Of a stretch of 64,000 bases of DNA, positions 5,031 to 50,238 are shown piece after piece (positions within the stretch are counted from its first letter, which is position 1; every line of letters begins with the position of its first letter). The notes beneath the pieces are model-generated. The model searched no databases. It saw nothing but the letters and a program-made list of their open reading frames with translations, and was not told the DNA's origin. Origin of the DNA: Deltaproteobacteria bacterium (GTDB taxonomy: Bacteria > Desulfobacterota > GWC2-55-46); the NCBI GenBank assembly GCA_016177845.1, contig JACOUO010000030.1, positions 37,649-101,648 on the forward strand, in the 5' to 3' direction. The translations under genes and the position numbers were made by a program.

Positions 5031-5042
5031 GATAACCTCTTT

Positions 5043-14322: not shown

Positions 14323-14348
14323 GGTTTTATATTTTTCTTTTTAGTTTT

Positions 14349-15542: not shown

Positions 15543-15587
15543 ATTCCGAAACTTTTATCCCGTTTAACGGGTTATTTTTTTAAAACC

Positions 15588-16091
15588 CTATTCCTTTTCA
15601 ACACCGTAAGGATTGTAGCGGTCCTTGTAGCCCCTTACAGGATATTCCTTGCGAAGCGGGAACCCTTCAAAATCCTCCGGCAGGTAGATACGCTTCAAAT
15701 TCGGGTGCCCTTCAAAAACAATCCCGAACATGTCATAGACTTCTCTCTCAGGCCAATCAGCGCCGTGCCAGATACCGGCAATAGAGGGCACTGTCTCCCC
15801 GTCGTTGACCTTTACCTTAAGCCTTATCCTCAGCTTTTTCGAAGTTGAGTAGAAGTGATAGACGACCTCAAATCTTGGCGTTTCGGTATTGTAGTCAACC
15901 CCTACAACATCTGAAATAAAGTTCATCTTTATTTCGGGATCAGTCTTTAAAAAGGTGCATATGCTGCGCAGCGCGCTCATTTGAATAAGATGCGTCACTT
16001 CGCCCCTGAATACGGTTGTCTCTATAATGTCGTGCCTGAAGGCCGACTGTATTTTTTTGATTAAGAGTTCGTCTCTATCTACAGGAGTCAT
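15588..16091 (-). CDS. nuoC: NADH-quinone oxidoreductase subunit C
   Basis: [23 protein letters not shown]...GFPLRKEYP. Confidence 0.96.
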
Positions 16092-16657
16092 TTGCCTACT
16101 CCGATCTTTCTTTTATCAAGGATATACGGGTTTTCCTTCTTGATCTTCTCCATAAGCTGGAGGAAGCCGAAGAGGAGCGCGTCCGGCCTTGGCGGGCATC
16201 CCGGCACATAGACATCCACCGGAACAACAAGGTCTGTGCCCTGTACGACGGAATAAGTATTATAAGGCCCGCCTGCAGAGGCGCAACCGCCCTGCGCTAT
16301 GACCCACCTGGGCTCAGGCATCTGGTCATAAAGCTTTTTGACTGCGGGGGCTATCTTTTTGGTCATTGTACCGGCTACTACCATTACGTCCGACTGACGG
16401 GGTGAAGGCCTGAACACTATACCCATCCTGTCAAGGTCGTAGCGTGAGCACGCGGCAGCTATCATTTCAATGGCACAGCATGCCAGACCAAAGGTCATGG
16501 GCCACAAAGAAGAGGAACGACCCCAGTTGACCACATCGCCGGTAACGGTGTTTTCCTTGATTGTATTGATGACGGGATTATTCCTTAATACATCCGCTAT
16601 GCTTTCAAGCGTTGTAAAAAAGATAGAATCTTCGATTGGATTTTTCCCTGTAACCAC
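16088..16657 (-). CDS. nuoB: NADH-quinone oxidoreductase subunit B
   Basis: [27 protein letters not shown]; GTG start. Confidence 0.96.
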
Positions 16658-16721
16658 AGAATTACCTTCAAAAAATTAATTTATTTACTGCCAAGCCGCT
16701 CTTACCTGAAGCCGGGTAGAA

Positions 16722-17087
16722 TCAAATCCATTCAAGCGCGCCCTTGACCCATGCGTAGATGAGCCCGACGGCGAGAACGGCAATAAATACAAACATCTCC
16801 ACAAAGAGGAACATGGATATGCTATGGTCGGTTAATATTACAGCCCAGGGAAAGAGAAAGAGAGTTTCAACATCAAAGACGATAAAGAGTATGGCGATGA
16901 TAAAGAAGTGAATCCTGAAATGCCCGGTATTGGCGTCCCCTACAGGCTCCATACCGCACTCCCAAGGAGTAAGCTTTTCCTTGTAAGGGTTCTTGGGCTG
17001 CATGATGAAGCTCATAAAAAGAGCCATGACGCCCATGAAAGACGCGAACCCGATCATTATGAGAATTGGCAAGTAAGAAAGAAGCAT
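16722..17087 (-). CDS. nuoA: NADH-quinone oxidoreductase subunit A
   Basis: PWECG, ILFIVFDVETLFLFPWA, GALEW. Confidence 0.96.
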   Translation of the reverse strand: MLLSYLPILIMIGFASFMGVMALFMSFIMQPKNPYKEKLTPWECGMEPVGDANTGHFRIHFFIIAILFIVFDVETLFLFPWAVILTDHSISMFLFVEMFVFIAVLAVGLIYAWVKGALEWI

Positions 17088-28924: not shown

Positions 28925-30109
28925 ATGTATAGAAAAATACTATTTTGCCTTGATAATTCAGCTTACGCAAACACCGGAATAGACCTTGGGCTTGAGATAG
29001 CCAAAGAGCATAACGCCTCTAATGCCGGCTGCCATGTGTATGCTGCAAAGCTCCACAATGACAGGTTCCGCGAGATGGAAGACGGCCTGCCGCCACAGTA
29101 CCAACAAGGAGAAATATTAAAAAACCAGCGCGAAGTCCACGACACCCTCATTACAAGGGGCTTAAAAATAATCTCCGACTCCTACACCTCCGTACTCCAT
29201 GCCAAATCAAAGGTGCTTGGACTTGATTCAATAGGGATAAGCAGGGAGGGCAAGAATTACGAACAACTTGTCCTGGAGATAACCGAAGGCGGATACGACC
29301 TTGCCGTAATCGGCGCTTTCGGGCTCGGCAAGACAGAATCAGGCCGCATAGGAAGCGTCTGCGAAAGAGTAATAAGGCGGATAAACATAGACACCCTCGT
29401 TACGAGGGATACACTCTCAACAAACCCTCAGGGAAGCATTCTGGTTGCCATTGACGGCAGCCCGCAATCATTCGGAGGGCTTTTGACCGCGCTTGAGCTT
29501 TCAAAGGTGTTTAACCGCAAAGTTGAGGCAGTGAGCGCATTTGACCCATGCTTCCATCAGACAGCGTTCCGTTCGATTGCCGGGGTACTCAGTGTTGAGG
29601 CAGGCAGGCTATTTAAATTCAGCGAACAGGAAAAGCTCCATGAAGAGATAATAGATAAAGGGCTTGCCAGAATATACCAGGAGCACCTCGATACCGCAGT
29701 CTCAATAGGCAAAGAAAAAGGCATCGAGGTAAAGGCAACTCTCCTTTCAGGCAAGCCTTTCAATGAGATACTCAAATACATGAAAAAGACCTCTCCTTTC
29801 ATGCTCATTATCGGCAGGACAGGCGTCCATGCCTCCCCTACCCTTGACATAGGCTCTACAACCGAGAACTGCATGAGGGAGTCAGACTGCCATATCCTCA
29901 TCTCTTCAAGGAAATACTCGCCTGATGCGGGAGCAAAAAAGATTGACGCCATCACATGGACGGATGAGGCTAAAACAATCCTTGAGCGCATTCCCCAGTT
30001 CGCAAGGGGTGTAGTCAAGAACATGGTTGAAAACTCTGCAAGGAGCGCGGGCCTCGATGAGGTCACTGCGGAGTTCATGCACACTGTCCGCAAGAAGATG
30101 GAAGAATGA
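28925..30109 (+). CDS. Tandem universal stress protein with C-terminal PCP_red-like domain
   Basis: Two USP units (KILFCLDNS...GSVCERVIR; ILVAIDGS...GSTTENCMR); tail WTDEAKTILERIPQFARGVVKNMVE...VTAE. Confidence 0.8.
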   Translation: MYRKILFCLDNSAYANTGIDLGLEIAKEHNASNAGCHVYAAKLHNDRFREMEDGLPPQYQQGEILKNQREVHDTLITRGLKIISDSYTSVLHAKSKVLGLDSIGISREGKNYEQLVLEITEGGYDLAVIGAFGLGKTESGRIGSVCERVIRRINIDTLVTRDTLSTNPQGSILVAIDGSPQSFGGLLTALELSKVFNRKVEAVSAFDPCFHQTAFRSIAGVLSVEAGRLFKFSEQEKLHEEIIDKGLARIYQEHLDTAVSIGKEKGIEVKATLLSGKPFNEILKYMKKTSPFMLIIGRTGVHASPTLDIGSTTENCMRESDCHILISSRKYSPDAGAKKIDAITWTDEAKTILERIPQFARGVVKNMVENSARSAGLDEVTAEFMHTVRKKMEE

Positions 30110-31308
30110 TTCCGATGGACTGCCCTCCTTTTTTAGTCTCATGGAATATCACCAAAAGGTGCAATCTCAAATGCAGCCACTGCTATCTTGACGCCTCTGA
30201 GCTTGAAGGCAACAATGAAGCCACAACGGTTGAAGCGCACAGGTTTGTCGATGAGATAGCTTCCGTAAACCCTCAGGCAATGCTGGTGCTGACAGGCGGA
30301 GAGCCTCTGATGCGCCCCGATATTTTTGAGGTCTCTTGCTACGCCTCTCAAAAAGGGCTTACAGTCGTACTTGGCACCAACGGAACGCTGCTTGAAGACA
30401 AGCTGATTGAAAAACTCAAGGATAGCGGAGTTAAGGGTGTAGGAGTAAGCCTTGACTCCTTAAACCCAAGCTACCACGATACATTCAGGGGACAAGACGG
30501 AGCATGGCAAAAGACAGTTAAAGCAATAGATTCGCTGAGATTACATGAAGTGCCTTTCCAGCTTCAGCTTACTGCCACACGGCAGAACATGCAAGAGATA
30601 CCCTCCTTCATTGAATTCGCCTATGAAAAAAATGCCAAGGCCGTTAACATTTTCTTTCTTGTATGCACAGGCAGGGGGCAGGATATAACGGATATAACCC
30701 CATCCGAATACGAAGAGATACTGAAATACCTTACAGAGGCTGAAGATGCCTATAAAGGCAAGATCATGGTCAGGGCAAGGTGCGCACCTCATTTTTTAAG
30801 GGTCGCCTCAGAGAATCCCCTTCACGGCTCTACAAGCGGCTGCATAGCAGGAAGAGGGTATTTAAGGATATCCCCTGAGGGGTTTGTCACCCCATGCCCC
30901 TACATACCCGTAAACAGCGCCACCTATAATCTAAAGGAAAAACCCCTTAAAGATATTATCGAGACCGACCGGCAGTTCACCTCTCTCAGAAAACCTCAAT
31001 ACTCCGGCAGGTGCAAGGGTTGTGAATTTGCGGAGAGCTGCGGCGGGTGCAGGGCAAGGGCGCTTGCCTCTACAGGCGACCTTATGGGAGAAGACCCGTG
31101 GTGCGCTTACGAGCCGAAAGGATCCGACGCAAAAAAGATTGAGGTAAACCCGCTCTGGACTATTGAAGCTCAAGAGAGGCTTAAAAACATCCCTTCTTTT
31201 TTAAGAGGCATGGTAAAAAAAGGGGTCGAGAGATACGCAAAACATAAAGGCATTGAAAGGATTACCCCTGAGTTAATGGCAGAGCTTAGAAAGAGGAGCG
31301 GCAGGTGA
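30106..31308 (+). CDS. Radical SAM/SPASM protein (Ahb/NirJ-like) with C-terminal PCP_red-like domain
   Basis: WNITKRCNLKCSHCY, TGGEP, SPASM cysteines (CIAG...PCP...CKGC...CGGCRAR...DPWC); tail WTIEAQERLKNIPSFLRGMVK. Confidence 0.85.
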   Translation: MIPMDCPPFLVSWNITKRCNLKCSHCYLDASELEGNNEATTVEAHRFVDEIASVNPQAMLVLTGGEPLMRPDIFEVSCYASQKGLTVVLGTNGTLLEDKLIEKLKDSGVKGVGVSLDSLNPSYHDTFRGQDGAWQKTVKAIDSLRLHEVPFQLQLTATRQNMQEIPSFIEFAYEKNAKAVNIFFLVCTGRGQDITDITPSEYEEILKYLTEAEDAYKGKIMVRARCAPHFLRVASENPLHGSTSGCIAGRGYLRISPEGFVTPCPYIPVNSATYNLKEKPLKDIIETDRQFTSLRKPQYSGRCKGCEFAESCGGCRARALASTGDLMGEDPWCAYEPKGSDAKKIEVNPLWTIEAQERLKNIPSFLRGMVKKGVERYAKHKGIERITPELMAELRKRSGR

Positions 31309-31502
31309 GCAAAAAAGAAAGCGAATTTAAACCCAAAAAGGGGATCAAAAGACAGTTCTTCGGCTGCGTGCTCCTTTCGCTTGGTTTTCTCAATACTTTA
31401 TTATCGGTAAGGGCGGGTGTTGAGCCGGGCTGGTTTAATTATCTGATGATAATCTTCGGTTCGATATTTTTAGGCACAGGCATATGGCAGGCGCGCTCTT
31501 AA
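31305..31502 (+). CDS. Hypothetical small membrane protein (2 TM)
   Basis: GTG start overlapping the rSAM stop (GTGA); basic N-terminus plus two hydrophobic segments. Confidence 0.6.
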   Translation: MSKKESEFKPKKGIKRQFFGCVLLSLGFLNTLLSVRAGVEPGWFNYLMIIFGSIFLGTGIWQARS

Positions 31503-33034
31503 TCCTTCTTTCTCCTTGCGCTGTAAAGCCACAAAAGCTCGCCTGCGAACACAAATAGCCCTATCAATACAGGCCATACATAAAATGAATTATCCGCCTC
31601 AGTCTCTAAGATCAGCCAATGCCAGCTCGTCATCACATGCCTTGAGCCCTTATCCCCGTTAGAGCCGTCCCATGCTGCAAAGGCTACAGGGATGAACTTG
31701 CCCGGTTCAAACTGGATATCTCTTTTGCTGTCGCCTGTCTTAAGCGGTCTTGTGAGAATAACTCTCCAGGTACCCTTTTCATAAGCGCCCGTTGCCTTAA
31801 GGCCAATCTCTTCGGACATACGAATTTCACTGTTGCTTGCTCCCTTTGAGTTCATCAGCTTTAGGCTCTGCGGTGAATCGATTGCGCCCTCACTTTGCCA
31901 GAACCAGATGTTTACAGGCTTGGAATCTCCCATGCCGAAGTATGGCTTTTCACTTTCTTTCGAAACAACAGGAAACTGAACCGCAACTCCGTCCACAAAC
32001 AACTCGCCGTCTGCTATCTCTATCGCCTTTTCATCCCAGGGCATGCTCTTTGTCGGGTCATCCCATTCAAGGAGGAAGACTATCTCGCTCTCGTTATAAA
32101 GGACCTTTACGGAAATCGAATTCAAGGAAGGCTTGAAGTGCCTCTCATTCGCTATAATCTGGGGCACCATGTAAAAGCTTGTGTATTCGGCCTTTGCCCA
32201 GGCCTCGCTCTTAGCATCCTTTGGCAGCTGCCCCGTTACCCTCACAGCCTTTATGGCATCGCTGTCGCCGGGCTTTTTATACGGCTCATCAAGAGAGGCA
32301 ACATAGTTGGCAACATCCCACCTCTCCTTGTCAGTCATTATCTTTTTGCTCTGCGGGTCCGCAAAGCTCGGCATCTGCGTGCCGGGTATGCCTACGGTAA
32401 TGCGGGCGTAAATATCCTCAGGCTCATTCGTAACCCTGAACGACCATCCTTTTGTAAGATTCCTTGGCCATGTCCTGCCCCCCCAGTCATCCTTAAGCTT
32501 CTTTGTTCCGTCTCCCCTGCCCTCTTCCCCGTGGCATTCCGAGCACCTGTCCCTGAAAAGCTTGCCTCCGCTCTCGATACTCTCTTTTGAAGACCTTACT
32601 TTTGAGGACAGGTCTATTTTCCCCTTCTCAGGTTTTTCTAATCCCCCCAGGCTCTTTATGTAAGCCGTGGCATTCTTTATTTCAGAGCCGCTTAACATAT
32701 CAGCCCAGCCGGGCATTGATGTGCCGTTCATGCCTGTCCAGCCCGGTATTCCGTTATGGGCGTTCGCGCCTGCTATCATCCTATTGAAATCTTCATCAGA
32801 TGGCGCAATCTCATCGAACGGGGTCGACTTCCACTTATATACGCCAAGGGTGAAGTCCCTCGGGGCAGGGTTCAGGAATTCAGAGGCAGGCCCGTCCCCT
32901 GCGCCGTCCTTTCCGTGGCACCATGAACATCTTTTTCCGTAAACTTCTTTCCCTTTTTCAATATCGCCTTCAGCCAATGAAAGCATCGGAAAAAGAGTAA
33001 ATATTGTTATAAGGAGTAAAATCCTTTTAAGCAT
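31499..33034 (-). CDS. Diheme cytochrome c fused to an EbdC-like (DOMON-type) heme-b domain, C-terminal TM anchor
   Basis: Signal peptide; CSWCH and CSECH; EWDD...DGVAVQFP...FGMGD...NIWFW...AFAAWDG; hydrophobic C-terminus. Confidence 0.8.
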   Translation of the reverse strand: MLKRILLLITIFTLFPMLSLAEGDIEKGKEVYGKRCSWCHGKDGAGDGPASEFLNPAPRDFTLGVYKWKSTPFDEIAPSDEDFNRMIAGANAHNGIPGWTGMNGTSMPGWADMLSGSEIKNATAYIKSLGGLEKPEKGKIDLSSKVRSSKESIESGGKLFRDRCSECHGEEGRGDGTKKLKDDWGGRTWPRNLTKGWSFRVTNEPEDIYARITVGIPGTQMPSFADPQSKKIMTDKERWDVANYVASLDEPYKKPGDSDAIKAVRVTGQLPKDAKSEAWAKAEYTSFYMVPQIIANERHFKPSLNSISVKVLYNESEIVFLLEWDDPTKSMPWDEKAIEIADGELFVDGVAVQFPVVSKESEKPYFGMGDSKPVNIWFWQSEGAIDSPQSLKLMNSKGASNSEIRMSEEIGLKATGAYEKGTWRVILTRPLKTGDSKRDIQFEPGKFIPVAFAAWDGSNGDKGSRHVMTSWHWLILETEADNSFYVWPVLIGLFVFAGELLWLYSARRKKD

Positions 33035-33799
33035 CTATTTCTTTCCCCATGACCTTGGTACATTGCCGGTATAGTCGTAGATAAAGAGTATCGCCTTCCA
33101 GACCTCATCCTCAGTTAGCATATTCTCCCACGCAGGCATGGATGATATGGCTGGAGAGCCTTCTTTAGGCAGGCCGGGCCCGCCTTTTACAACTCTCCAG
33201 AAGACATACGATTCCTGAAGCTGTGCAATTGTATCCTTGCCCTGAAATGGCAGGGGCAGAGGGTTAAGGCCCTGCGCATAGTGGCCTTTGCCGTCAAGCT
33301 TGTCTCCGTGGCAATAAAAACAATTCCTGAAATAAATCACGCCGCCCTCACCTACAAACTGCCTGAACTGTGCCGGGTCTTCCTTCTCAAGCCTTCTGTA
33401 AGGGTTTTCAAGGGTAGCAAGGTCAAATGTCTTATCATATGCCTTGATGGTTGCGGGCGGTGCAGGATGCGTTGCCCTAAGCTCTACAGGCGGCTCAAGG
33501 GAGGGCTTAACTGCGTTATAAGTAAAATAAATTGCAATCAAAGGAAGGACCGCAAATACGACATTCCTTATTAGTCTTTTTGAAGGGTCTTCCACAAGCG
33601 CCCTGATGGGAGAGAAGAGCTCCTTTGTGCCTTTCTCAGTAGATGTCATCACAAGCAGTATTGTGATGACTACAAAGAACATATACATGAATATGAGGCT
33701 CTCAGGGATGGGCTTACCCAATAAAAACCCGGGAGCCTTGAAGAACAGATAGGCAAGGAGCGAAAGGACGATAAATTGTATTATCTTCGGCATCTTCAT
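33035..33799 (-). CDS. Membrane-anchored monoheme cytochrome c
   Basis: N-terminal TM segments; CFYCH; distal SSMPAW. Confidence 0.85.
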   Translation of the reverse strand: MKMPKIIQFIVLSLLAYLFFKAPGFLLGKPIPESLIFMYMFFVVITILLVMTSTEKGTKELFSPIRALVEDPSKRLIRNVVFAVLPLIAIYFTYNAVKPSLEPPVELRATHPAPPATIKAYDKTFDLATLENPYRRLEKEDPAQFRQFVGEGGVIYFRNCFYCHGDKLDGKGHYAQGLNPLPLPFQGKDTIAQLQESYVFWRVVKGGPGLPKEGSPAISSMPAWENMLTEDEVWKAILFIYDYTGNVPRSWGKK

Positions 33800-34338
33800 T
33801 GCTTGCCTTCCATAGCGTTTTGTTCCTGAGCTTGAGGAGGCGTTACGACAGTCACCTCAGCCCCGCCGAGTCTCTGCAGATATGCGATTACAGCCTTTAT
33901 TTCTGTCTCATTTAATCCTATCGAGCCTGTGCGCACATCAGGCATGGGGCTTTCTTTATCGTTCGTACCTGTCACGCCAAACCCCGCTGCAACATAGGCT
34001 GAAGGGCTTACCATCGACTCACGGATATATTCCTCAGCGGTCTTTGCGCTCCCCTTATACCCTGCCCCCTTTATCCTTTCAGAAGCAACAGTTGCTATAT
34101 TATCAAGCAGAGGCGCCCTGCCCCCGACAGGAGTATGGCATAGCGTGCAGGCGCCTTTGCCGTTGTATACGACTTCTCCGAGAGAGACGAACTCATCTAC
34201 CGTCATTGAGCCTTCATCAAAGGCCTCTTCCTTCGGCGGCTCTTCGGGCTTTATAGGCGGCACATACTTTACTGAAAAGAGCGTATAGACCCCGATTACG
34301 AAAAGGCTGAATATCGTCACCTTTACAAAGTTACTCAT
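33796..34338 (-). CDS. Monoheme cytochrome c
   Basis: N-terminal anchor; CTLCH; YIRES...SPMP. Confidence 0.85.
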   Translation of the reverse strand: MSNFVKVTIFSLFVIGVYTLFSVKYVPPIKPEEPPKEEAFDEGSMTVDEFVSLGEVVYNGKGACTLCHTPVGGRAPLLDNIATVASERIKGAGYKGSAKTAEEYIRESMVSPSAYVAAGFGVTGTNDKESPMPDVRTGSIGLNETEIKAVIAYLQRLGGAEVTVVTPPQAQEQNAMEGKQ

Positions 34339-36181
34339 CCGCTGCCCCGTATTTGTTCTCAGTGCTCATCTGGCTCAGCCAGAATATGAAAATGACGATT
34401 GCCATGAAGATGATGGTGCCGACCGATACCACATTTGCGGCATAGCCGATTGTCGGCGTGTACGCGTCAGGAGAAGTGTCCCGCATCACAGAATAGACAT
34501 GCCAGTGCTGCCTTATGGCAGACCGTACAAAGCCCATGAGCCCCATCAGCCATGTGAATGAAACCGCAATGAGGAAAAGGGCGTACTGGCTCCTGTCAGG
34601 CATCCTGCCCCATCTGTGCGGGCTCGCCTCTTTCGCGCCACTGAACATGAAAAAATCTATTACGCTGCACAAAATTATTACTGCCAGGGTTGACATGACC
34701 TGCGGAACCGATGAAGCCACCTTGTAAACGGTATTCGTGAAGTATCCGTAATAAACCCCAAGATAGATGATGTTTACGATAGCCGCAGTAAAAATCGCGC
34801 CCTGCGCCGCGTTGCCGTATTTTGCCCATGAGACTGCGGCAATTTTATTCGCCCTTCTGTATAAAAGAAAACTTAGAAAGGTAAACAGGAGCATTATATT
34901 TACAGCCGTATTCTTGGCAGGCATTATGCCAAGCGGGCCAAGATACGGATGGTATTGGCCTCCGAGAGCCTTTGCCTCATAGGGCTTAAGTATCAGACTA
35001 TGCGGAGTGAACCATATCAAAAAGCAGACCATTATCACAAAGGCGATGTACTTGATGTATTTAGTGTAACGCTGCCCGCCCTCGCTCCTTTCAAGCCCGC
35101 ACCAGAGGTAATAATTCGCCGCAAGGAAGAGCGCGCCTATCAAGACCGCCTGAATGATGAAGAGCCACGCGAACACCCCTCCCATAAGAGTAATGCCCAT
35201 CTGCTGGCTGTAGGCATAAATCTCTGCGGTAAGCCAGTAGCCCGCAAAAGGCAAAGGAAGGAGCGCGCCTATGGCGATAAGGTTTGCCGTATAGCCCATC
35301 CAGTCGTAATGCGCCCTTTGTTCCATCGTGCGCGCGCTTAAGAACTTGTAAGCGGCATATGCCCCGACAATTGAACCGCCGTAAGCGATATTTGCGATAA
35401 ACCTGTGGAGGTTCATGGGATTCCAGAGGTGGTTGTGCACTGCATGCCAGATATTGCCGTCAAAAGACCCCGCGATATCCACTCCCGCGGGCGACATCAT
35501 GAATGTCACCCATGCGTTTGCAATGAACATGAGGGTAGTGCCTGCGCCGTTTAACAATAACCCAACCCCAAGGTGCGCCCATTTTTTATAGCCCTTATCC
35601 ATTGAATGCCAGCCGTAGTAATAGATGTAGAGGGCGGCTGACTCAACAAAAAAGAACAGGGCATACAAAAGCATGGTCGGCCCGAAGATGGAGGAGAGAT
35701 ACTTCATCAGGTCAGGATAGAATACGATTAAACTAAGCAGGAGAAGGCCGCCTGTTACCGCGGTAATCGAGTACGCCGTAAGGCTTACCCTTATGAACTC
35801 ATACGCCATCTCATCATAGCGTTTATCTTTTGTAGCCATGCCGATTGCTTCGATAATGAATACAAATATCGGAACCGCAAGCACAAATGCCGCAAACCAC
35901 AGGTGCATCTGAGCGGCCAGCCATACTGCCACCCTGCCGTTCACACCCTTTATCTTCGGGTAGTCCTGTGCCTTGAGCTTGGGCGCGGGCGGGTTCGCCT
36001 GTTTTACCGAATCCCCGGTAACGGAACTGCCCTGAACTGGTTCAGTTATTGCCGTCTCAGCGGCAAAGGATATGTTACGGGAGCCATCGAAAGAAATAGA
36101 GACGCAAAGGAATGAGAACGCGAAAAGCAGTATGAGGAATACTTTTCTTCCAAAAAGATTTAAAGCGGAGGTGCTCACCAA
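34331..36181 (-). CDS. Cytochrome bd subunit I (CydA)-like membrane oxidoreductase
   Basis: QMHLW (His19-like), ANAW...SPAG, LHRF (His186-like), IMP (Met393-like), RQHW in place of GRQPW; no CydB beside it. Confidence 0.8.
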   Translation of the reverse strand: MVSTSALNLFGRKVFLILLFAFSFLCVSISFDGSRNISFAAETAITEPVQGSSVTGDSVKQANPPAPKLKAQDYPKIKGVNGRVAVWLAAQMHLWFAAFVLAVPIFVFIIEAIGMATKDKRYDEMAYEFIRVSLTAYSITAVTGGLLLLSLIVFYPDLMKYLSSIFGPTMLLYALFFFVESAALYIYYYGWHSMDKGYKKWAHLGVGLLLNGAGTTLMFIANAWVTFMMSPAGVDIAGSFDGNIWHAVHNHLWNPMNLHRFIANIAYGGSIVGAYAAYKFLSARTMEQRAHYDWMGYTANLIAIGALLPLPFAGYWLTAEIYAYSQQMGITLMGGVFAWLFIIQAVLIGALFLAANYYLWCGLERSEGGQRYTKYIKYIAFVIMVCFLIWFTPHSLILKPYEAKALGGQYHPYLGPLGIMPAKNTAVNIMLLFTFLSFLLYRRANKIAAVSWAKYGNAAQGAIFTAAIVNIIYLGVYYGYFTNTVYKVASSVPQVMSTLAVIILCSVIDFFMFSGAKEASPHRWGRMPDRSQYALFLIAVSFTWLMGLMGFVRSAIRQHWHVYSVMRDTSPDAYTPTIGYAANVVSVGTIIFMAIVIFIFWLSQMSTENKYGAADE

Positions 36182-36198
36182 AGATTCTCCCGGATTTT

Positions 36199-36312
36199 TT
36201 ACGGCTTGAAAATAAATGAGAGGCCCTGCGCATTGAAAAGGGCTACATCAAGGCCAAGGAACAAAATGCCGAATGCCGCAAGGGCTATCAAGAATGCCAG
36301 ACTATACTTCAT
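36199..36312 (-). CDS. 37-aa single-TM protein heading the oxidase operon (not in ORF track)
   Basis: MKYSLAFLIALAAFGILFLGLDVALFNAQGLSFIFKP; AAGGT upstream; stop 17 nt before the CydA-like start. Confidence 0.65.
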   Translation of the reverse strand: MKYSLAFLIALAAFGILFLGLDVALFNAQGLSFIFKP

Positions 36313-36666: not shown

Positions 36667-37167
36667 ATGGCGAATAAAGACAAAAAAAAGGCCCTTGTAC
36701 TTGGAATAGGCAATATCCTATTAAAGGACGAAGGGCTTGGGGTCAGGGCGATAGAGTTTTTTGAGAGGATGTACAGTTTCAGCCGGGAAGTCTCCTGCAT
36801 GGACGGGGGCACTGCCGGGTTAGCGCTTCTTTCATATATAAAAGATTTCTCCCACATCATTATTATCGACGCTGTCGCCGCAAACGGGCACCCCGGCTCT
36901 ATCCTTAAGTTCAAAGGAGACGAAGTCCTCAAAGGCCCGCCCCTCAGGACATCCGCTCACCAGCTCGGAGTTACAGACCTGCTCACTCTTTTGAAATTCG
37001 AGGGTTACAGCCCTGAAGTTGCCATTATAGGGGTAATCCCTGAAGATTATTCAGCCGGACTTGAACTTTCTCCTTCTATCTCAAAGGTTCTCCCTGAAAT
37101 TGCCGAAGCTATATCAGATGAGCTTGCCGCCTTTGGATTCAAGACAAAGAGGAAAAACCATGCATGA
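36667..37167 (+). CDS. Hydrogenase maturation endopeptidase (HyaD/HybD family)
   Basis: LGIGNILLKDEGLG, DGGT, IIDA, SAHQ. Confidence 0.92.
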   Translation: MANKDKKKALVLGIGNILLKDEGLGVRAIEFFERMYSFSREVSCMDGGTAGLALLSYIKDFSHIIIIDAVAANGHPGSILKFKGDEVLKGPPLRTSAHQLGVTDLLTLLKFEGYSPEVAIIGVIPEDYSAGLELSPSISKVLPEIAEAISDELAAFGFKTKRKNHA

Positions 37168-37501
37168 GATGTCCATAACAAAAAGCATGCTTGAGATAAT
37201 CAAAGACGAGATGGATAAAAGCAAAGTCTCTCAGCTCAGAAGCGTTCGGATTAAAGTCGGGGAACTTACGGCTGTAGAGCCTGATGCGCTTAGGTTCTGC
37301 TTTGAGGCATCCACAAAAAACACCCCACTGGAGGGAGCTTCCCTTGAGATTGAGGAAGTGCCTTTGAAAGGGAAATGCCGCAGGTGCGGAAATAAATTCA
37401 GGATAGAGGCATTCGTAAGCCGATGCCCTGAATGCGGCGGCGCTGATATAGAAAAAATATCAGGCACTGAACTTGATATAGTCTCGATAGAGGCTGAGTG
37501 A
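37160..37501 (+). CDS. hypA: Hydrogenase nickel incorporation protein
   Basis: MHE start at ATG 37160; CRRC and CPEC. Confidence 0.93.
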   Translation: MHEMSITKSMLEIIKDEMDKSKVSQLRSVRIKVGELTAVEPDALRFCFEASTKNTPLEGASLEIEEVPLKGKCRRCGNKFRIEAFVSRCPECGGADIEKISGTELDIVSIEAE

Positions 37502-37520
37502 TTACGGAGGATTTTGCAAA

Positions 37521-38189
37521 ATGCACGATATATCGGTTGAACAGAAGATATTATCCAAAAACGACGAGCTTGCGGGCGAGAACAGAGAGCTTCTTACAAG
37601 TAAAAAGATATTTTCCATTAACATGGTAAGCTCGCCCGGTTCTGGAAAGACTTCAATCATCGAAAAGACGCTCCCCTATCTCAAAGAGCGCATTAAGATA
37701 GCGGTAATCGAAGGGGACCTTCAGACCGACCTTGACGCGCAAAGGGTCGCAAAGTACGGTATCCCAGTAAAGCAGATAACAACGGGCAAGGCCTGCCACC
37801 TTGACGCGCACAACATCCACCATGTACTGCCCTGGGTAATGGAGCAGGACGGGATAGGTCTCCTCATAATCGAAAATGTCGGCAACATGGTCTGCCCGGC
37901 TGAATACGACCTTGGGGAAGACATGATGATAACCGTAATGAGCACGACCGAGGGAGATGACAAGCCGCTTAAATACCCGGCAATTTTCAGCTCAGCGGAT
38001 GTGCTGCTTTTAAATAAGACAGACCTCGCGCCTTATACTGACTTCAATATCGAAAGGGCAAAAGAGAATGCCCTCAGGATAAACCCGTACCTTAAAATTT
38101 TTGAGACCTCATGCAGGACAGGCGCTGGCATAAAAGAGTGGAGCGATTTTCTCGCTCAAACAGCCCTGAACGGGCATGGAAAGATTTGA
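37521..38189 (+). CDS. hypB: Hydrogenase nickel GTPase
   Basis: SSPGSGKT, CHLDA, ENVGNMVCPA, NKTDL. Confidence 0.95.
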   Translation: MHDISVEQKILSKNDELAGENRELLTSKKIFSINMVSSPGSGKTSIIEKTLPYLKERIKIAVIEGDLQTDLDAQRVAKYGIPVKQITTGKACHLDAHNIHHVLPWVMEQDGIGLLIIENVGNMVCPAEYDLGEDMMITVMSTTEGDDKPLKYPAIFSSADVLLLNKTDLAPYTDFNIERAKENALRINPYLKIFETSCRTGAGIKEWSDFLAQTALNGHGKI

Positions 38190-40514
38190 ATGGACAAAGC
38201 CTCAAGGATACATATTACCGGAATAGTGCAGGGAGTCGGCTTCCGTCCCTTTGTCTATAATCTCGCTGGAAAATACAACCTCAAGGGGTTCTGCCTCAAT
38301 GACTCCGAAGGGGTTACAATCGAGGTACAGGGCAATTCCGTTGACAGGTTCATTGATGAACTCAAGGCAGCTCCTCCGCCCCTTTCAAGGATAGAGACAT
38401 TTTCTGTGGAGGATGTAGCCGCTTCCCCCTACACTGATTTCTCAATCAGGGAAAGCCAAAAGAAAGACGGAAAGTTCGTCCTCATATCCCCTGACATAGC
38501 CATATGCCCGGACTGCCTGAGGGAGTTACTGGACCCCGCTGACAGGAGATACCTCTACCCGTTCATAAACTGCACCAATTGCGGCCCGCGGTATTCAATA
38601 GTAAAAGACATACCCTATGACAGGCCGTTTACCACAATGGCCCCTTTCAAATTATGTGCAGACTGCGAGAGCGAATACCATAACCCGGCTGACCGCCGCT
38701 TCCATGCCCAGCCAAACGCATGCGCGCATTGCGGCCCAATGCTCTGGCTTGCGGAAGACCATCTCGCAAAACCTTATGAGGTAAATTATTCGGCAATAAA
38801 GATGGTGCAGGAACTCCTGAAAAAGGGAGCGATACTGGCCATTAAAGGGCTTGGGGGCTTCCACCTTGCCTGCGACGCTGAAAACGATAAGGCTGTAAAG
38901 AAGCTGAGGGAGAGAAAAAGAAAATCCCTTCTCAAAGGCGTAAGCTCAAATAAGCCATTTGCGCTCATGAGCCCTGACATTGAAAAGATAAAGTCCTATG
39001 CCCATGTGTCAAGGCTTGAGCAGGAAACGCTTGAAGGCAGAATAAGGCCTATCGTACTTCTCGAAAAAAAGGATTCGAGGAATCTGTCTGAATCCATCGC
39101 GCCCAATAATACGCGCTACGGAGTGATGCTTCCATATACGCCTATGCATTACCTGCTCTTCAATTCAGAGGCGCATAACTTCAGGGCGCTTGTAATGACA
39201 AGCGGAAATCTATCAGAAGAGCCTATTACCATTTCCAATAATGAAGCTGAGGAGAGGCTTTCAGGCATTGCAGATTATTTTCTCCAGCACAACAGGGACA
39301 TATACATGAGGGTCGATGACTCAATCGTCCGCGCGGACGGAAAGCTCAGGATACTGAGGCGCGCTCGCGGCTTCACACCAAGCCCTATTCACATCGGCGA
39401 AGAGGTGAAAGACATACTGGCCTGCGGTGCTGAACTTAAGAACACATTCTGCATCACGAAAGGAAAGAACGCCATCTTAAGCCAGCACATAGGAGACCTT
39501 GAAAATTTCGAGGCTCTGGAATTTTATAAAGAGACGCTTAAAAACCTTAAGAACTCATTCAGGAGCGAACCCGGGATTATTGCCCATGACATGCATCCTG
39601 ATTACCTGAGCACCAAGTTTGCCTCTGAATATATCGAAGAGAATAATATCAAGCATGAGGATGTCTTTCCCGTACAGCACCACCACGCCCATATTGCAAG
39701 CTGCATGGCTGAGAACGGCTTAAGGCAAAAATGCATCGGGATATCCTTTGACGGCACAGGCTACGGCACTGACGGGAATATCTGGGGAGGAGAATTCCTT
39801 ATAGCGGACAGGTTGGATTTTAAACGGGAGGCCCACTTCAGCTACATCGCTCTGCCCGGAGGGGACAAGGCCGTAAAAGAGCCGTGGAGGGTCGCGCTTT
39901 CATATCTCATGCATACCTATAATGATGAAAACAGCGATGAAGTGAAGCTCTTCCTGAAAAGGTTTGAAAGTAAAGAATCCGATATAATACTTAAGATGAT
40001 AAAAGGCCGCATCAATTCTCCTTTGACATCGAGCGCGGGGAGGCTCTTTGACGCCATCGCCTCCATTATAGGACTAAGGGACAGGATAACATTCGAGGCA
40101 GAGGCTGCCATAGAACTTGAGGCAATTGCCGACAACTCCGTTAAAGAAAGCTATCCTTATGCTGTTGAAAACAGAGAGCCTTCTGAAATTGATCTTAGGC
40201 CTCTTATAATGGCAATAATCAATGACCTGAAAGACGGCATCTCTCTTCCGACAATCTCAGGCAGGTTCCACAATACGATTGCCGATATCATTAAAAATAT
40301 TGCCCGGAAGGTCAGGAGCAGGGATAAAACAAACGATGTGGTCTTAAGCGGAGGCGTGTTTCAGAACAACCTCTTATTGCAAAAAACACAGGAACTCCTT
40401 GAGGCAGAGGGCTTCAAGGTATGGACTCATGGGCAGGTGCCGTCAAATGACGGAGGCATTGCGCTCGGTCAGGCAATTGTCGCATGGGAGAGATTCAAAC
40501 ATAAAGGAGTATAA
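38190..40514 (+). CDS. hypF: Carbamoyltransferase
   Basis: GIVQGVGFRPF acylphosphatase domain; four CxxC zinc motifs; KGLGGFHL; QHHHAH; PSNDGGIALGQ. Confidence 0.96.
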   Translation: MDKASRIHITGIVQGVGFRPFVYNLAGKYNLKGFCLNDSEGVTIEVQGNSVDRFIDELKAAPPPLSRIETFSVEDVAASPYTDFSIRESQKKDGKFVLISPDIAICPDCLRELLDPADRRYLYPFINCTNCGPRYSIVKDIPYDRPFTTMAPFKLCADCESEYHNPADRRFHAQPNACAHCGPMLWLAEDHLAKPYEVNYSAIKMVQELLKKGAILAIKGLGGFHLACDAENDKAVKKLRERKRKSLLKGVSSNKPFALMSPDIEKIKSYAHVSRLEQETLEGRIRPIVLLEKKDSRNLSESIAPNNTRYGVMLPYTPMHYLLFNSEAHNFRALVMTSGNLSEEPITISNNEAEERLSGIADYFLQHNRDIYMRVDDSIVRADGKLRILRRARGFTPSPIHIGEEVKDILACGAELKNTFCITKGKNAILSQHIGDLENFEALEFYKETLKNLKNSFRSEPGIIAHDMHPDYLSTKFASEYIEENNIKHEDVFPVQHHHAHIASCMAENGLRQKCIGISFDGTGYGTDGNIWGGEFLIADRLDFKREAHFSYIALPGGDKAVKEPWRVALSYLMHTYNDENSDEVKLFLKRFESKESDIILKMIKGRINSPLTSSAGRLFDAIASIIGLRDRITFEAEAAIELEAIADNSVKESYPYAVENREPSEIDLRPLIMAIINDLKDGISLPTISGRFHNTIADIIKNIARKVRSRDKTNDVVLSGGVFQNNLLLQKTQELLEAEGFKVWTHGQVPSNDGGIALGQAIVAWERFKHKGV

Positions 40515-40517
40515 AAT

Positions 40518-40733
40518 ATGTGCCTTGGAATTCCGGGCAAGATAATAGAAATAAACGGCTCAACGGCAAAGGTCGATATAGCCGGCACGAGGAAAGAGGC
40601 TTCCATAAAGCTTATGGAAGATGTCAAGGTCGGTGAATTCGTCATCATCCACGCAGGCTTTGCCATAGAAAAGGTCGACGAGCAAAAGGCCAGAGAGACT
40701 CTCGAACTTATAGACGAGGTTATAGAACGATAA
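40518..40733 (+). CDS. hypC: Hydrogenase chaperone
   Basis: MCLGIPG N-terminus; HAGFAI. Confidence 0.96.
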   Translation: MCLGIPGKIIEINGSTAKVDIAGTRKEASIKLMEDVKVGEFVIIHAGFAIEKVDEQKARETLELIDEVIER

Positions 40734-41824
40734 TGAAATACATAGATGAATTCCGCCGAAAAAAAGAAGCGCAGGGGATATTGAAAACAATCCATAAGAT
40801 ATCCCGAAAACGGGTAAACATCATGGAGATATGCGGCACACACACGCATTCGATCTCCAGGTACGGGATACGGGAAGGCCTTCCTGAGAGCATCAAGCTC
40901 ATCTCCGGGCCGGGCTGCCCTGTGTGCGTCACATCCGCAGCGGACATAAACAGGATAATAGAGTTCAGCAAGTCCAGAAAGGACGCTATCATAGCTACCT
41001 TCGGGGACATGATGAGGGTCCCTGGCACTAACTCTTCGCTTCAGGAAGAAAGGGCAAGGGGCGGTGATATAAGGGTAGTCTATTCGCCTCTCGGCACGCT
41101 TGATATCGCAAGGGCAAACCCTGATAAAGAAGTTGTCTTCTATGCCGTAGGGTTTGAGACGACTGTGCCTACAGTTGCCTCCACCATCCTTACAGCCAAA
41201 GAAGAGGGGCTTAAGAACTTATCAGTCCTGTCCCTGCACAAGCTCACGCCTCCAGCAATGAGGGCTCTGCTTGACAGCGGCGAGGTCGAGATAAACGGGT
41301 TTATCTGTCCGGGCCATGTTACGGCCATAATTGGTGCAGGCGCATACGAGTTCCTTGCAACGGATTACAAATCACCCTGTGTCGTAGCGGGCTTTGAGCC
41401 GATTGACGCGCTCATGGGCTTATATATGCTTGTAAAACAGCTTGAAGAGGACAGGTGCGAGATAGAGATAGAATATAATAGAGTAGTCACCTGGGACGGC
41501 AACAAAAAGGCCCAGACTGTAATAGATGAAGTATTCGAGCCTTCCGACAGCCTCTGGAGAGGCATTGGCAATATCCCGAAGAGCGGACTTCAGATAAATG
41601 AAAAATACGCCTTCTTTGATGCCGAGAAGAGGTTTTCAATACCAAAGGGCGAGGATGCAGAGCCCAAGGGCTGCAGGTGCGGCTTAGTGCTTAAAGGCAT
41701 TATGACGCCTGACCAGTGCCCGCTCTTTGCCACGGCGTGCACGCCTGAATCACCGGTTGGCCCTTGCATGGTATCCTCAGAAGGCACATGCGCGGCCTTC
41801 TTCAAATACAGAAGAGTTGCTTGA
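40733..41824 (+). CDS. hypD: Hydrogenase maturation protein
   Basis: CGTHTH, GPGCPVC, GFETT, PGHV, C-terminal Cys cluster. Confidence 0.96.
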   Translation: MKYIDEFRRKKEAQGILKTIHKISRKRVNIMEICGTHTHSISRYGIREGLPESIKLISGPGCPVCVTSAADINRIIEFSKSRKDAIIATFGDMMRVPGTNSSLQEERARGGDIRVVYSPLGTLDIARANPDKEVVFYAVGFETTVPTVASTILTAKEEGLKNLSVLSLHKLTPPAMRALLDSGEVEINGFICPGHVTAIIGAGAYEFLATDYKSPCVVAGFEPIDALMGLYMLVKQLEEDRCEIEIEYNRVVTWDGNKKAQTVIDEVFEPSDSLWRGIGNIPKSGLQINEKYAFFDAEKRFSIPKGEDAEPKGCRCGLVLKGIMTPDQCPLFATACTPESPVGPCMVSSEGTCAAFFKYRRVA

Positions 41825-41841
41825 AATCAAATAGGAGTAAT

Positions 41842-42858
41842 ATGTCCAAAGAAAAAGAAAAGATACTTTTAGCACACGGCAGCGGCGGAATACTGAGCAG
41901 GAGGCTTGTTGAAGAAGTCTTCGCGAAGGCATTCTCAAACCCTCTGCTTGCCCCTTTAAACGATCAGGCCATATTCGAGCTGCCGAATAAAAAACTCGCC
42001 TTCACGACTGATTCATATGTGGTGAACCCTGTATTTTTCCCGGGCGGAGATATCGGCAAGCTATCCGTATGCGGCACAATAAACGACCTTGCTGTAGGAG
42101 GGGCTGAGCCGGTCTATCTGAGCGCTTCATTTATCATCGAAGAGGGCATGGACTTTGATGACCTTAAAAAAATAGTTGATTCAATGTCGAAAACAGCCAA
42201 TGCCGCCGGGGTAAAGATAATCACCGGGGATACAAAGGTTGTTGAACGGGGAAAGGGTGATAAGGTCTTTATAAATACAACAGGTATCGGAGTGGTAAAT
42301 GATGATATTAATCTGACCCCTGCAAACATCAGCCCCGGAGATGTTATCATAGTCTCAGGTTCCATGGGAGACCACGGTATCGCCATCATGACCTTCAGGG
42401 AAGGCATACAGATGGAAGTGCCTGTTGAGAGCGACTGCGCCCCTCTACACCTCCTTGTAAACGATATGCTTACAAAGGCAGGCGGCGTCAAGGCAATGAG
42501 AGACCCCACGAGGGGCGGGCTTGCCACTATCTTAAATGAGTTTGCCTCATCCTCAAACTGCGGGATGATTATCAGGGAAGATGATATCCCCGTAAAAGAA
42601 GAGGTAAAAGGCGCCTGTGAAATTCTTGGGTTTGACCCGCTCTATCTCGCCAATGAAGGAAAACTTGTTGCCGTTGTAGCAAAGGAATATGCCCAAGATG
42701 TGCTCTCGGCAATGAAGGCGAACCCGCTCGGGAAAGATGCCGCTATTATCGGCACTGTATTGAGCGAGCCTAAAGGGAAGGTACTGCTTGAGACTTCAAT
42801 AGGAAATAAGAGGATACTTGACATGCTCTCAGGCGAGCAGCTGCCGAGGATTTGCTGA
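41842..42858 (+). CDS. hypE: Carbamoyl dehydratase
   Basis: AHGSGG, TTDSYV, DPTRGG, C-terminal PRIC; start moved to ATG 41842 after AGGAG. Confidence 0.96.
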   Translation: MSKEKEKILLAHGSGGILSRRLVEEVFAKAFSNPLLAPLNDQAIFELPNKKLAFTTDSYVVNPVFFPGGDIGKLSVCGTINDLAVGGAEPVYLSASFIIEEGMDFDDLKKIVDSMSKTANAAGVKIITGDTKVVERGKGDKVFINTTGIGVVNDDINLTPANISPGDVIIVSGSMGDHGIAIMTFREGIQMEVPVESDCAPLHLLVNDMLTKAGGVKAMRDPTRGGLATILNEFASSSNCGMIIREDDIPVKEEVKGACEILGFDPLYLANEGKLVAVVAKEYAQDVLSAMKANPLGKDAAIIGTVLSEPKGKVLLETSIGNKRILDMLSGEQLPRIC

Positions 42859-49146: not shown

Positions 49147-50238
49147 TTATGGCTTTGAAAAACGCCCCTGAATTATATTTTCATGGGTTTCGCCACAATT
49201 TTGCCACACTTTTGAATAACCCAATCCAAAATCAAGCCTATCAACGGAATCCCGAAGATCTTCCTTGACCAAGTTAACATAAAGCATCGTAGTCTCGATG
49301 TCAAGATGACCAGCGAGAAACATGATCTTCTGGACAGGTACATTTTTCCTGGCAAGCTGGGTACAAAAGGTGTGCCGAAGAGAATGTATATCTGCATCAG
49401 TGATACCGGCTCTCTTATAGCACACCTTAAGGTTCCGAAGCAAATTATTTTTTCTCGGGTTCCCCTTCTCATTCGGGAAAACATACCTGCTCGTGCCTGC
49501 CAGCCTGTCCCTCTGAATAAGCAGGGCATTGTAAGCATCCTCATTCAACGGAACAGTCCGGGGCTGATAGTTCTTGGTGTGATAATTATACTCAGGCTTG
49601 TTCCTGACGTAAACCATCCTGTCCTCAAAGTCTATGTCACACCATTCCAGCATGACCAGCTCCATTTTCCGGAGGCCGATGTTGATCCCTGCCACGATAA
49701 ACGCCCACATGGTATCAGTGGTCAGAGCCAAAAGTGTCTTTATCTCGTGATCACGGAGCCAGCGGGGAAGTTTTTTGGTCTTTACCTTGTAAAACCTGAC
49801 CTCTTTTACAGGGTTCTCGACAAGGTACTTCTTAGTGACCGCATAGTTGAACATGCTCCGTATGTCAGAAAGCTCGCGATTCACCGTATTCTCCGACACC
49901 TTCGCCTTCCTGGCCGGCTTATACGCTTCAATCACCGATGGGGTGACCTTATCCAGGAATTCGATTCCAGATATATGCGCCAGGAAATGATTCATCGAAA
50001 GCTGCATCCTGGAGTATCCGTTGTGTGAAGCGTGGTCTTTGAAATACGGCAGGAACTCGCCCATGAACTCTGAAATGCTTATCCTGCTCGCGAATCCCAG
50101 GCCATGGCGTTCTTTGCGGAGCTTCATATCCGAAATCCAAGCCTCCGCAAAGCGCTTGGTGCTGAACCGCTTGGTTCTGCGAACACCGTTGATCATCACA
50201 TTTGCTTCATATGAGCCATCTTTGAATCTCACGCCCAT
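49147..50238 (-). CDS. Tyrosine recombinase / integrase
   Basis: GLRKMEL (Arg), HSLRHT (HxxR), LAGH, TMLY (Tyr); N-terminal arm and core-binding domains. Confidence 0.95.
   Translation of the reverse strand: MGVRFKDGSYEANVMINGVRRTKRFSTKRFAEAWISDMKLRKERHGLGFASRISISEFMGEFLPYFKDHASHNGYSRMQLSMNHFLAHISGIEFLDKVTPSVIEAYKPARKAKVSENTVNRELSDIRSMFNYAVTKKYLVENPVKEVRFYKVKTKKLPRWLRDHEIKTLLALTTDTMWAFIVAGINIGLRKMELVMLEWCDIDFEDRMVYVRNKPEYNYHTKNYQPRTVPLNEDAYNALLIQRDRLAGTSRYVFPNEKGNPRKNNLLRNLKVCYKRAGITDADIHSLRHTFCTQLARKNVPVQKIMFLAGHLDIETTMLYVNLVKEDLRDSVDRLDFGLGYSKVWQNCGETHENIIQGRFSKP

Follow-up and report, generated by a model that had tools for sequence, protein, structure and literature searches.

Within the cytochrome bd superfamily, the OR-N2 enzymes are classed as predicted oxygen reductases, encoded in operons that typically hold several cytochromes c and an ebdC homologue, and their electron donor may be cytochrome c (Murali et al., 2021). 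Matching gene sets have been described elsewhere: in Nitrospira moscoviensis, a cluster of four genes (bd-like_3, two c-type cytochromes and alt_NxrC_2) is among the 40 most transcribed genes; in Candidatus Manganitrophus, the set named TO_1 reaches the 98th expression percentile; and the cluster is reported to be conserved in Nitrospina and in anammox bacteria. In Nitrospira, Nitrospina and Manganitrophus, the main terminal oxidase is presumed to be of the OR-N type; as late as 2024-2025, papers describe these enzymes as uncharacterised. Here we analyse a module of this type in a 64-kb stretch of DNA from an uncultured Deltaproteobacteria bacterium (assembly GCA_016177845.1, contig JACOUO010000030.1, positions 37,649 to 101,648; hereafter the window), where an operon for a CydA-like protein and three cytochromes c converges on an operon for a USP-domain protein and a radical SAM enzyme.

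An earlier reading of the same DNA (the original prediction) had taken this locus for a candidate undescribed respiratory module. Novelty in that sense does not hold, the gene set being already present in Murali et al. (2021) and in the Nitrospira, Manganitrophus (TO_1), Nitrospina and anammox descriptions: the core module is of a known but uncharacterised kind, to which the window adds one member with a reduced accessory set. What appears to be unreported is the association of OR-N2 with heme-type maturation genes. In the literature searched, we found no published description of an accessory USP/radical SAM unit for the OR-N2 family, and no paper that places bd-like oxidases together with AhbD, protoporphyrinogen oxidase or a radical SAM enzyme.

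Results

Signature residues place the CydA-like protein in OR-N2

Five genes run on the minus strand. The first gene of the core operon (36199-36312) encodes a 37-aa peptide with a single transmembrane (TM) helix, as seen in the open reading frame (ORF) list and by hydropathy, and lies 17 bp upstream of the gene for the 616-aa CydA-like catalytic subunit (34331-36181; PF01654 match). The latter overlaps by 8 bp the gene for a 180-aa monoheme cytochrome c with an N-terminal anchor helix (c180; 33796-34338; PF00034), itself overlapping by 4 bp the gene for a membrane-anchored 254-aa monoheme cytochrome c with three N-terminal TM helices (c254; 33035-33799; PF13442). The c254 gene abuts the last one (31499-33034), whose 511-aa product joins a diheme cytochrome c to an EbdC/NxrC-type heme-b domain ('alt_NxrC' type, hereafter EbdC-2c; two PF00034 matches, PF09459 and TIGR03477). 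On the plus strand, three genes run towards this operon, encoding a protein with tandem USP domains and a C-terminal PCP_red domain (28925-30109; domain scans), a radical SAM/SPASM enzyme of the AhbD/NirJ type that also ends in a PCP_red domain (30106-31308; domain scans), and a 65-aa protein with two TM helices (31305-31502), known from the ORF list and from homologues in related loci. The 65-aa gene overlaps the stop of the radical SAM gene by 4 bp and shares positions 31499-31502 with the convergent EbdC-2c gene, the two stop codons overlapping. Four CXXCH motifs are present in total, two in EbdC-2c and one each in c254 and c180; the CydA-like protein has none. All eight ORFs lie where the original prediction had placed them, and its picture of five packed or overlapping minus-strand genes, with their domains and heme counts, facing a USP/radical SAM/membrane-peptide operon across a 4-bp stop overlap, is borne out by the ORF list, the domain scans and the CXXCH count. 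Its remark that cydB is missing also stands within the window, the range of the search, where tblastn with E. coli CydB gave a best E value of 0.46. No CydB-like family was seen among the conserved neighbour families of 80 related loci either, where no search was aimed at CydB.

The Cyt_bd_oxida_I family (PF01654) matches only residues 83-316 of the CydA-like protein, and its sequence matches in the PDB are CydA chains only, limited to the first five helices. Similarity to the CydA proteins of E. coli, M. smegmatis and G. thermodenitrificans ends around residue 269-286 and is followed by helices, not by a loop; by alignment to the solved CydA structures, which stops near residue 286, a Q-loop with quinol-binding residues (E. 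coli K252 and E257) is absent, as had been suspected. When residues are paired by hhalign and Supplementary Table 6 of Murali et al. (2021), H93 is equivalent to E. coli H19, E180 to E107, H203 to H126, H259 to H186, M420/N424 to M393 and W560 to W441, whereas Y173, followed by a one-residue deletion, replaces E99 and S554 replaces E445. The canonical set of heme ligands and proton-path residues is therefore incomplete, with H93, H259, M420 and E180 kept and E445 and E99 lost. The motif that the original prediction had read as RQHW without its preceding Glu is indeed S554-A-I-R-Q-H-W, with Ser at the E445 position.

The reference signature of OR-N2 (H269, N434/M430, S563, H99, Y183, E190, H213, W569, Y197 and Y199; Murali et al., 2021, Table S6) is matched at every position, with equal spacing, by H259, N424/M420, S554, H93, Y173, E180, H203, W560, Y187 and Y189 of the window protein. 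By these signature residues, the CydA-like protein is a member of the OR-N2 subfamily of the cytochrome bd superfamily, in line with the OR-N-type placement first proposed for it. Conservation was followed in 81 sequences from other genomes (73 orthologues and 8 long paralogues): the equivalents of E107 and M393 (E180 and M420) are invariant in all of them, those of H19, H126 and H186 are likewise conserved, and seven His are kept by at least 97% of the orthologues and by most of the long paralogues. The conserved His include H291, H394, H411 and H561, which have no counterpart in canonical CydA. Secondary structure in an AlphaFold2 (AF2) model gives, at modest confidence, about 14 helices (residues 286-327 counted as one), the first being a signal or anchor helix at the N terminus, and hydropathy agrees. 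The AF2 model, made with 24 close homologues, has a pLDDT of 63 and a pTM of 0.59, and its ten best Foldseek matches are all CydA chains.

Other members of the superfamily were considered and set aside. In OR-N1 proteins, E107 corresponds to Gly and W441 to Phe (W/Y/F), and OR-C proteins are CydA with a fused heme c, for which a CXXCH would be needed. A canonical CydAB quinol oxidase does not agree with the lack of CydB in the window, the lack of a Q-loop and the loss of the E445 and E99 equivalents. A fusion of CydA and CydB would have 18 helices, not 14, and CydB chains match the model weakly in Foldseek.

The operon encodes three cytochromes c and small membrane proteins

Each of the two monoheme proteins has one cytochrome c domain. 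c180 carries CTLCH at residue 64 and a TM helix at residues 5-23, and in related loci its gene always follows the CydA-like gene. c254 carries CFYCH at residue 160; in gammaproteobacterial loci it is fused with EbdC-2c into one protein of about 800 aa, which argues that these products share one complex. EbdC-2c has a signal peptide, two cytochrome c domains, an EB_dh domain (8e-27; TIGR03477, 8.6e-35) and a C-terminal TM helix, and its PDB matches are 6h5l_B for the diheme part (6e-37), 2ivf_C (EbdC, 3e-17) and 7b04_C (NXR-C of Kuenenia). The ligands of its two c hemes (C36/C39/H40 with M107, and C164/C167/H168 with M221) are invariant in 68 sequences. For heme b, the Met ligand is probably M368, which lies in a conserved MGD-x-KPVN stretch, and the position of the Lys ligand of EbdC/NXR-C is occupied by H466. 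Both of these putative ligand positions vary within the family (368: His 29, Met 18, Arg 11; 466: His 47, Met 11), so that heme-b ligation, and hence the potential, probably differs between lineages. The gamma subunits of type II dimethyl sulfoxide (DMSO) reductases are recognised by a Met/Lys pair together with alpha and beta genes; here the domain is present, Lys is replaced by H466, and no alpha or beta molybdoenzyme gene was found in the window.

Both small peptides are conserved at equivalent positions in other genomes and on this comparison are real genes. The 37-aa peptide has counterparts with 53-69% identity upstream of the CydA-like gene in seven related loci, and phmmer also finds it homologous to a small gene upstream of the CydA-like gene in three loci; it shows no sequence similarity to E. 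coli CydX and is probably a small subunit. The 65-aa protein is homologous to a small gene that comes immediately after the EbdC gene in six loci (phmmer, 8e-9 to 2e-4). Because both proteins have homologues within oxidase operons elsewhere, the core is, on this evidence, a set of six genes, of which the 65-aa gene has moved in the window to the opposite strand, behind the radical SAM gene. A radical SAM maturase of ribosomally synthesized and post-translationally modified peptides, acting on the 65-aa protein, was rejected as a first choice: peptide-maturase models score at most 160 bits against more than 300 for the heme-type families, and the reading is further weakened by the 65-aa gene belonging to the oxidase operon in other genomes.

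The core module is widespread and its order is kept

Of 8,000 candidates that were scored, more than 7,500 (clusters at 90% identity) proved to be relatives of the CydA-like protein, and the top 120 share 67-80% identity with the query; clustering at 50% leaves 277 representatives at E 1e-30. Judged by these alignments, the family combines abundance with tight constraint. With one genome scanned per species, at least 598 loci were obtained. The closest hosts are groundwater Deltaproteobacteria known from metagenome-assembled genomes (MAGs), with 73-79% identity and synteny with the window, and further hosts are found in Magnetococcales, Mariprofundaceae, Gallionella, Acidiferrobacteraceae, Thiodiazotropha, Sedimenticola, Thiomargarita, Rhodospirillaceae, Roseovarius, Nitrospinota and Nitrospirota; where a matching operon occurs in the last two phyla, identity is 55-65%. 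The module is also carried by an isolate, Aestuariirhabdus sp. LZHN29.

For the neighbourhood analysis, all ORFs of 80 species loci were clustered and the conserved families were domain-scanned. ORF calling in these loci was crude and produced antisense ORFs in high-GC contigs (four clusters are examples), so that the neighbour counts given here are lower bounds. Wherever the genes were detected and the contig was long enough, the order CydA-like, c180, c254, EbdC-2c is constant.

Two kinds of locus hold further respiratory genes. In seven loci (three more are similar) a second module lies in tandem upstream. The order there is HEAT-repeat protein, CarboxypepD_reg-like (CPDreg) protein, a CydA-like paralogue of greater length (about 710-730 aa, with 44% identity to that of the window), three genes for cytochromes, two for small cytochromes and last the OR-N2 module; the arrangement is reminiscent of Nitrospira, where a duplication of bd-like clusters (bd-like_3/_4) has been reported. 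The second kind comprises 18 loci of marine gamma- and alphaproteobacteria. In these, some 6-11 kb beyond the start of the CydA-like gene, the OR-N2 module usually has behind it two genes for diheme cytochrome c peroxidases, one for a Rieske protein and one of the Rieske_3/molybdopterin (AioA/IdrA-like) type, a few loci being incomplete. This is the set described for iodate reductase, idrP1P2BA; the iodate-reductase paper that we examined does not mention an adjacent oxidase.

Putative heme-type maturation genes recur beside OR-N2 modules

The USP protein of the window has two Usp domains, each with an ATP-type G-x2-G-x9-G-S motif, followed by PCP_red; its orthologues in other classes often have three to four PCP_red repeats. 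Profile and structure matches identify PCP_red as the C-terminal domain of the BchB subunit of DPOR, an enzyme in which this domain contacts the substrate. The radical SAM enzyme consists of a CX3CX2C radical SAM core, a SPASM domain and a PCP_red domain that matches the BchB C-terminus and Asr4154 and is kept by orthologues at 41-63% identity. Its best NCBIfam models are NirJ2 (TIGR04055, 314 bits) and AhbD (TIGR04545, 302 bits), both below the 500-bit cutoff.

Across the 80 loci, the recurrent accessory set consists of USP-PCP_red, radical SAM-PCP_red, a HemY-type flavoprotein, a HEAT-repeat protein of about 800 aa, a CPDreg protein of about 250 aa and a small membrane protein; SCO1/SenC is found in 11 loci, mostly directly after the EbdC gene. 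The HemY-type protein passes the protoporphyrinogen oxidase model TIGR00562 with 236-270 bits in three loci, including that of Aestuariirhabdus (cutoff 97.85). USP-PCP_red lies directly upstream of the radical SAM gene in the genome loci that have both, and the USP, radical SAM and HemY-type genes keep that order. The set is placed in one of three ways relative to the core: behind it and convergent with it, as in the window; after it, in the same direction; or before it, in the divergent direction. The adjacency of the USP/radical SAM genes across genomes, on which the original prediction depended, is thus observed, the neighbourhood being conserved in Delta-, Alpha-, Beta-, Gamma- and Zetaproteobacteria and in Nitrospinota.

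Frequencies were taken from the 30 loci whose flanks were full (9 kb or more upstream, 5 kb or more downstream), an accessory gene being counted when within 10 kb of the OR-N2 core. USP-PCP_red is present in 17 of the 30, radical SAM-PCP_red in 16, the HemY-type gene in 18 and the HEAT gene in 18, and 26 loci have at least one of these four or CPDreg. The window and its closest relatives hold only the USP and radical SAM members, and no HemY-type, HEAT, CPDreg, SCO1 or cytochrome c peroxidase gene was found in the window.

A reciprocal test started from 80 metagenome loci picked by the radical SAM-PCP_red protein alone. USP-PCP_red adjoins the radical SAM gene, sometimes 1-2 kb upstream, in most loci of sufficient length, and OR-N2 lies within 10 kb in about 8 of the 21 cassette loci with full flanks, leaving about 13 without it. 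The link between cassette and OR-N2 is therefore strong but not exclusive. Two contexts have no CydA-like gene within 10 kb. One (15 loci) has an ODP metallo-beta-lactamase-fold protein, an slr0320-like B12-radical SAM protein, UbiE, a diheme peroxidase and a membrane protein like CopD, and here the USP protein also carries a rubredoxin-like domain; in the other (four loci), the cassette stands beside a 733-aa homologue of the heme a synthase CtaA/COX15. To judge from domain content, the shared theme of the partners of the cassette is tetrapyrrole chemistry. The dedicated cofactor-maturation unit of the original prediction stands in part: co-localisation, with accessory genes at 26 of 30 OR-N2 loci, supports such a unit for the OR-N2 complex, and its being dedicated does not extend to the many cassettes that occur without OR-N2.

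Two more proteins of these neighbourhoods deserve mention. A role of the HEAT-repeat protein as a bilin lyase is not claimed, since its matches to the CpcE, CpcF and NblB models fall far short of the cutoffs and can be put down to the type of repeat. A membrane-anchored protein of about 110-130 aa, with PRYC and RRP(Y/F)LIAAKLL(Y/F)L motifs and no Pfam or NCBIfam match, occurs in 11 loci; it adjoins the HemY-type gene in five and lies just upstream of the CydA-like gene in five others.

The rest of the window

The flanks are ordinary chromosome: to one side lie a nuo operon, gatAB, fabI and a carbonic anhydrase gene, to the other the genes for hydrogenase maturation. The Complex I operon spans window positions 836-17000 on the minus strand (nuoN, M, L, G, F and D by NCBIfam, smaller subunits between them). 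The hydrogenase maturation genes (36667-42858, plus strand; an endopeptidase-like gene, hypA, hypB, hypF, hypD and hypE) are divergent from the oxidase operon, and this synteny is retained in the two closest MAG loci; no hydrogenase structural gene was found in the window. Positions 49147-63777 are likely a mobile or defence region, where GC content swings between 0.44 and 0.54 and the genes encode a tyrosine recombinase, an adenine DNA methyltransferase, a restriction-enzyme-like protein of 895 aa, a TraH-like protein and a 1116-aa ORF.

Discussion

We propose, with a probability of about 0.5, that the minus-strand genes encode one OR-N2-type membrane complex that reduces O2 with electrons from cytochrome c, in keeping with the cytochrome c-fed O2 (or NO) reductase of the original prediction, and that the convergent operon is a heme accessory unit. 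Electrons would enter from the periplasm, from a soluble cytochrome c or a docked periplasmic dehydrogenase, at the diheme-c/heme-b subunit held in place by its C-terminal helix, and would then pass through the two membrane-anchored monoheme cytochromes c, which makes five c and b hemes in all before the CydA-like subunit. There, they would reach a b558-like heme with H259 and M420 as ligands and finally a ligand-binding heme under H93, the predicted site of O2 reduction. Protons would come from the cytoplasm by the retained E180/H203 path, so that charge would be separated as in cytochrome bd, here with neither quinol nor CydB. The 37-aa and 65-aa proteins would be small subunits, and the ATP-binding USP-PCP_red protein, together with the AhbD/NirJ-like radical SAM-PCP_red enzyme, would make, tailor or deliver heme for the complex, a unit that in other genomes is extended by the HemY-type porphyrinogen oxidase, the HEAT-repeat protein and sometimes SCO1. 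That O2 is the substrate is suggested by the conservation of the equivalents of H19, E107, H126 and H186/M393 in the 81 sequences, by the predominance among the hosts of lithotrophs with an aerobic or microaerophilic life (Gallionella, Mariprofundaceae, Thiodiazotropha, Sedimenticola, Nitrospinota and Nitrospirota), by most Nitrospinota and many Nitrospirales genomes encoding no other terminal oxidase (2024-2025 papers), and by the high transcription of the cluster in N. moscoviensis and Manganitrophus.

Several points weigh against this proposal. The loss of the E445 and E99 equivalents (to Ser and Tyr) means that the di-heme site is not identical to that of canonical bd, and the weak AF2 model (pLDDT 63) allows no cofactor geometry to be read. 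The cluster is reported to be conserved in anammox bacteria, which are strictly anaerobic, and for the cluster type of Nitrospira a role in reverse electron flow, instead of in O2 reduction, has been put forward. We found no purification, biochemical or structural study of a bd-like oxidase in the literature searched, which agrees with the 2024-2025 papers and with the description of the OR-N family as uncharacterised in the original prediction. On the accessory side, the window lacks the HemY-type, HEAT, CPDreg and SCO1 genes, the cassette is not exclusive to OR-N2, and in a deltaproteobacterial lineage an AhbD-like enzyme could serve general heme synthesis.

A serious competitor from the literature is that the complex of the core operon is not an oxidase at all. 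It might be a membrane electron wire, linking the quinone pool with cytochrome c or with redox enzymes of the periplasm like an alternative complex III run in reverse by the proton-motive force, or it might anchor an enzyme of the type II DMSO-reductase family through its NxrC/EbdC-like subunit. Such a role has been proposed for the matching cluster in Nitrospina, Nitrospira and anammox bacteria, and the cluster is conserved in the last of these, which are anaerobic; the EB_dh domain is that of the gamma subunits of these enzymes, and elsewhere the module adjoins periplasmic molybdoenzyme genes (Rieske plus AioA/IdrA-like). Against this, no quinone site is recognisable, the Q-loop residues are absent, and the O2- and proton-site residues of bd oxidases are conserved across the 81 sequences. 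Alpha and beta molybdoenzyme genes are missing from the window and from most of the 80 loci, and the Lys heme ligand of EbdC/NXR-C has given way to His. On balance we find a wire or an anchor unlikely. Reduction of another small oxidant than O2, such as NO, H2O2 or the product of a halogen oxyanion, could be imagined from the interaction of canonical bd oxidases with NO and H2O2, cited in the 2024-2025 literature, and from the 22 loci that have genes for cytochrome c peroxidases, in most cases a pair, behind the module, 18 of them also with the AioA/IdrA-like gene of an iodate-reductase-like set. These peroxidase and AioA-like neighbours are however confined to certain lineages and absent from the window, which has no nir or nor gene either, and no direct evidence speaks for such a substrate; we regard it as highly improbable.

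The USP/radical SAM unit, for its part, might not be specific to the oxidase. It could be an O2-independent module for general heme synthesis or stress that is merely co-regulated with low-oxygen respiration, much as hemN is co-regulated with the cbb3 oxidase genes in many proteobacteria. Its nearest families, AhbD and NirJ2, act in general anaerobic heme synthesis, HemY-type and AhbD-type enzymes could together form a coproporphyrin-type route to ordinary heme b, the USP domains point to regulation, and the cassette stands without OR-N2 in many metagenome loci. Yet the radical SAM enzyme scores far under the AhbD and NirJ2 cutoffs (302-314 against 500 bits) and its fusion to PCP_red is retained in orthologues across classes; accessory genes also accompany 26 of 30 OR-N2 loci, in three different arrangements. 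Moreover, alpha- and gammaproteobacteria normally make heme via the protoporphyrin route, and an AhbD-type enzyme should be unneeded in such hosts. A general module is on balance doubtful.

Going beyond a heme accessory unit, OR-N2 may contain a cofactor absent from canonical bd: a heme derivative made by the HemY-type and AhbD-like radical SAM enzymes and delivered by the PCP_red and HEAT proteins, perhaps with a copper held by the four extra His and loaded by SCO1. We consider this rather improbable as a whole, and its copper part is speculative, drawing on SCO1, on the extra His and on an older copper-site proposal for the Nitrospira bd-like oxidase (Lücker et al., 2010, as cited in a later paper). 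If true, an OR-N2 enzyme with a special cofactor would be a third chemical solution for respiratory O2 reduction, beside the heme-copper and bd oxidases.

The OR-N2 type is here extended to hundreds of sulfur-, iron- and hydrogen-oxidising lineages. The tetrapyrrole-type maturation genes beside it are concrete knockout targets and lead to the prediction of an unusual heme. Some of the taxa in which the whole set is found have been brought into culture, among them the genera Sedimenticola and Roseovarius, through some of their members, and the isolate Aestuariirhabdus sp. LZHN29; these are far easier to grow than nitrite oxidisers.

How the locus compares with known systems may be summarised from its closest to its more distant likenesses. 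With the described OR-N2 clusters (Nitrospira bd-like with two cytochromes c and alt_NxrC; TO_1) it shares about 14 helices without a Q-loop or CydB, the residues H/Y/E/H/H/M(N)/S/W at E. coli H19/E99/E107/H126/H186/M393/E445/W441, and the presence in its operon of genes for two membrane cytochromes c and for a heme-b subunit of the c-heme/EbdC type; it differs in its host, which resembles uncultured groundwater deltaproteobacteria, in having no NXR nearby and in the 65-aa gene being part of the convergent operon. With canonical CydABX (E. coli bd-I, G. thermodenitrificans, M. smegmatis bd-II) it shares the first four to five helices, the equivalents of H19, E107, H126 and H186, a Met at the M393 position, the R-Q-x-W motif and the fold, whereas CydB and the Q-loop (K252/E257) are missing, E445 is Ser and E99 is Tyr, helices and four conserved His are added, and entry of electrons through c hemes would replace quinol. 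EbdC and NXR-C have in common with the 511-aa protein the EB_dh beta-sandwich domain and the Met of the ligand pair in the MGD-x-KPVN stretch; the window protein is distinguished by the fused diheme cytochrome c, the C-terminal membrane anchor, His at the Lys-ligand position and the lack of alpha and beta genes nearby. Finally, the radical SAM enzyme has the CX3CX2C core and the SPASM auxiliary-cluster domain of AhbD and NirJ/NirJ2, its highest-scoring families, and departs from them in scoring below the family cutoffs, in its C-terminal PCP_red domain and in its pairing with USP-PCP_red and, elsewhere, with a HemY-type oxidase.

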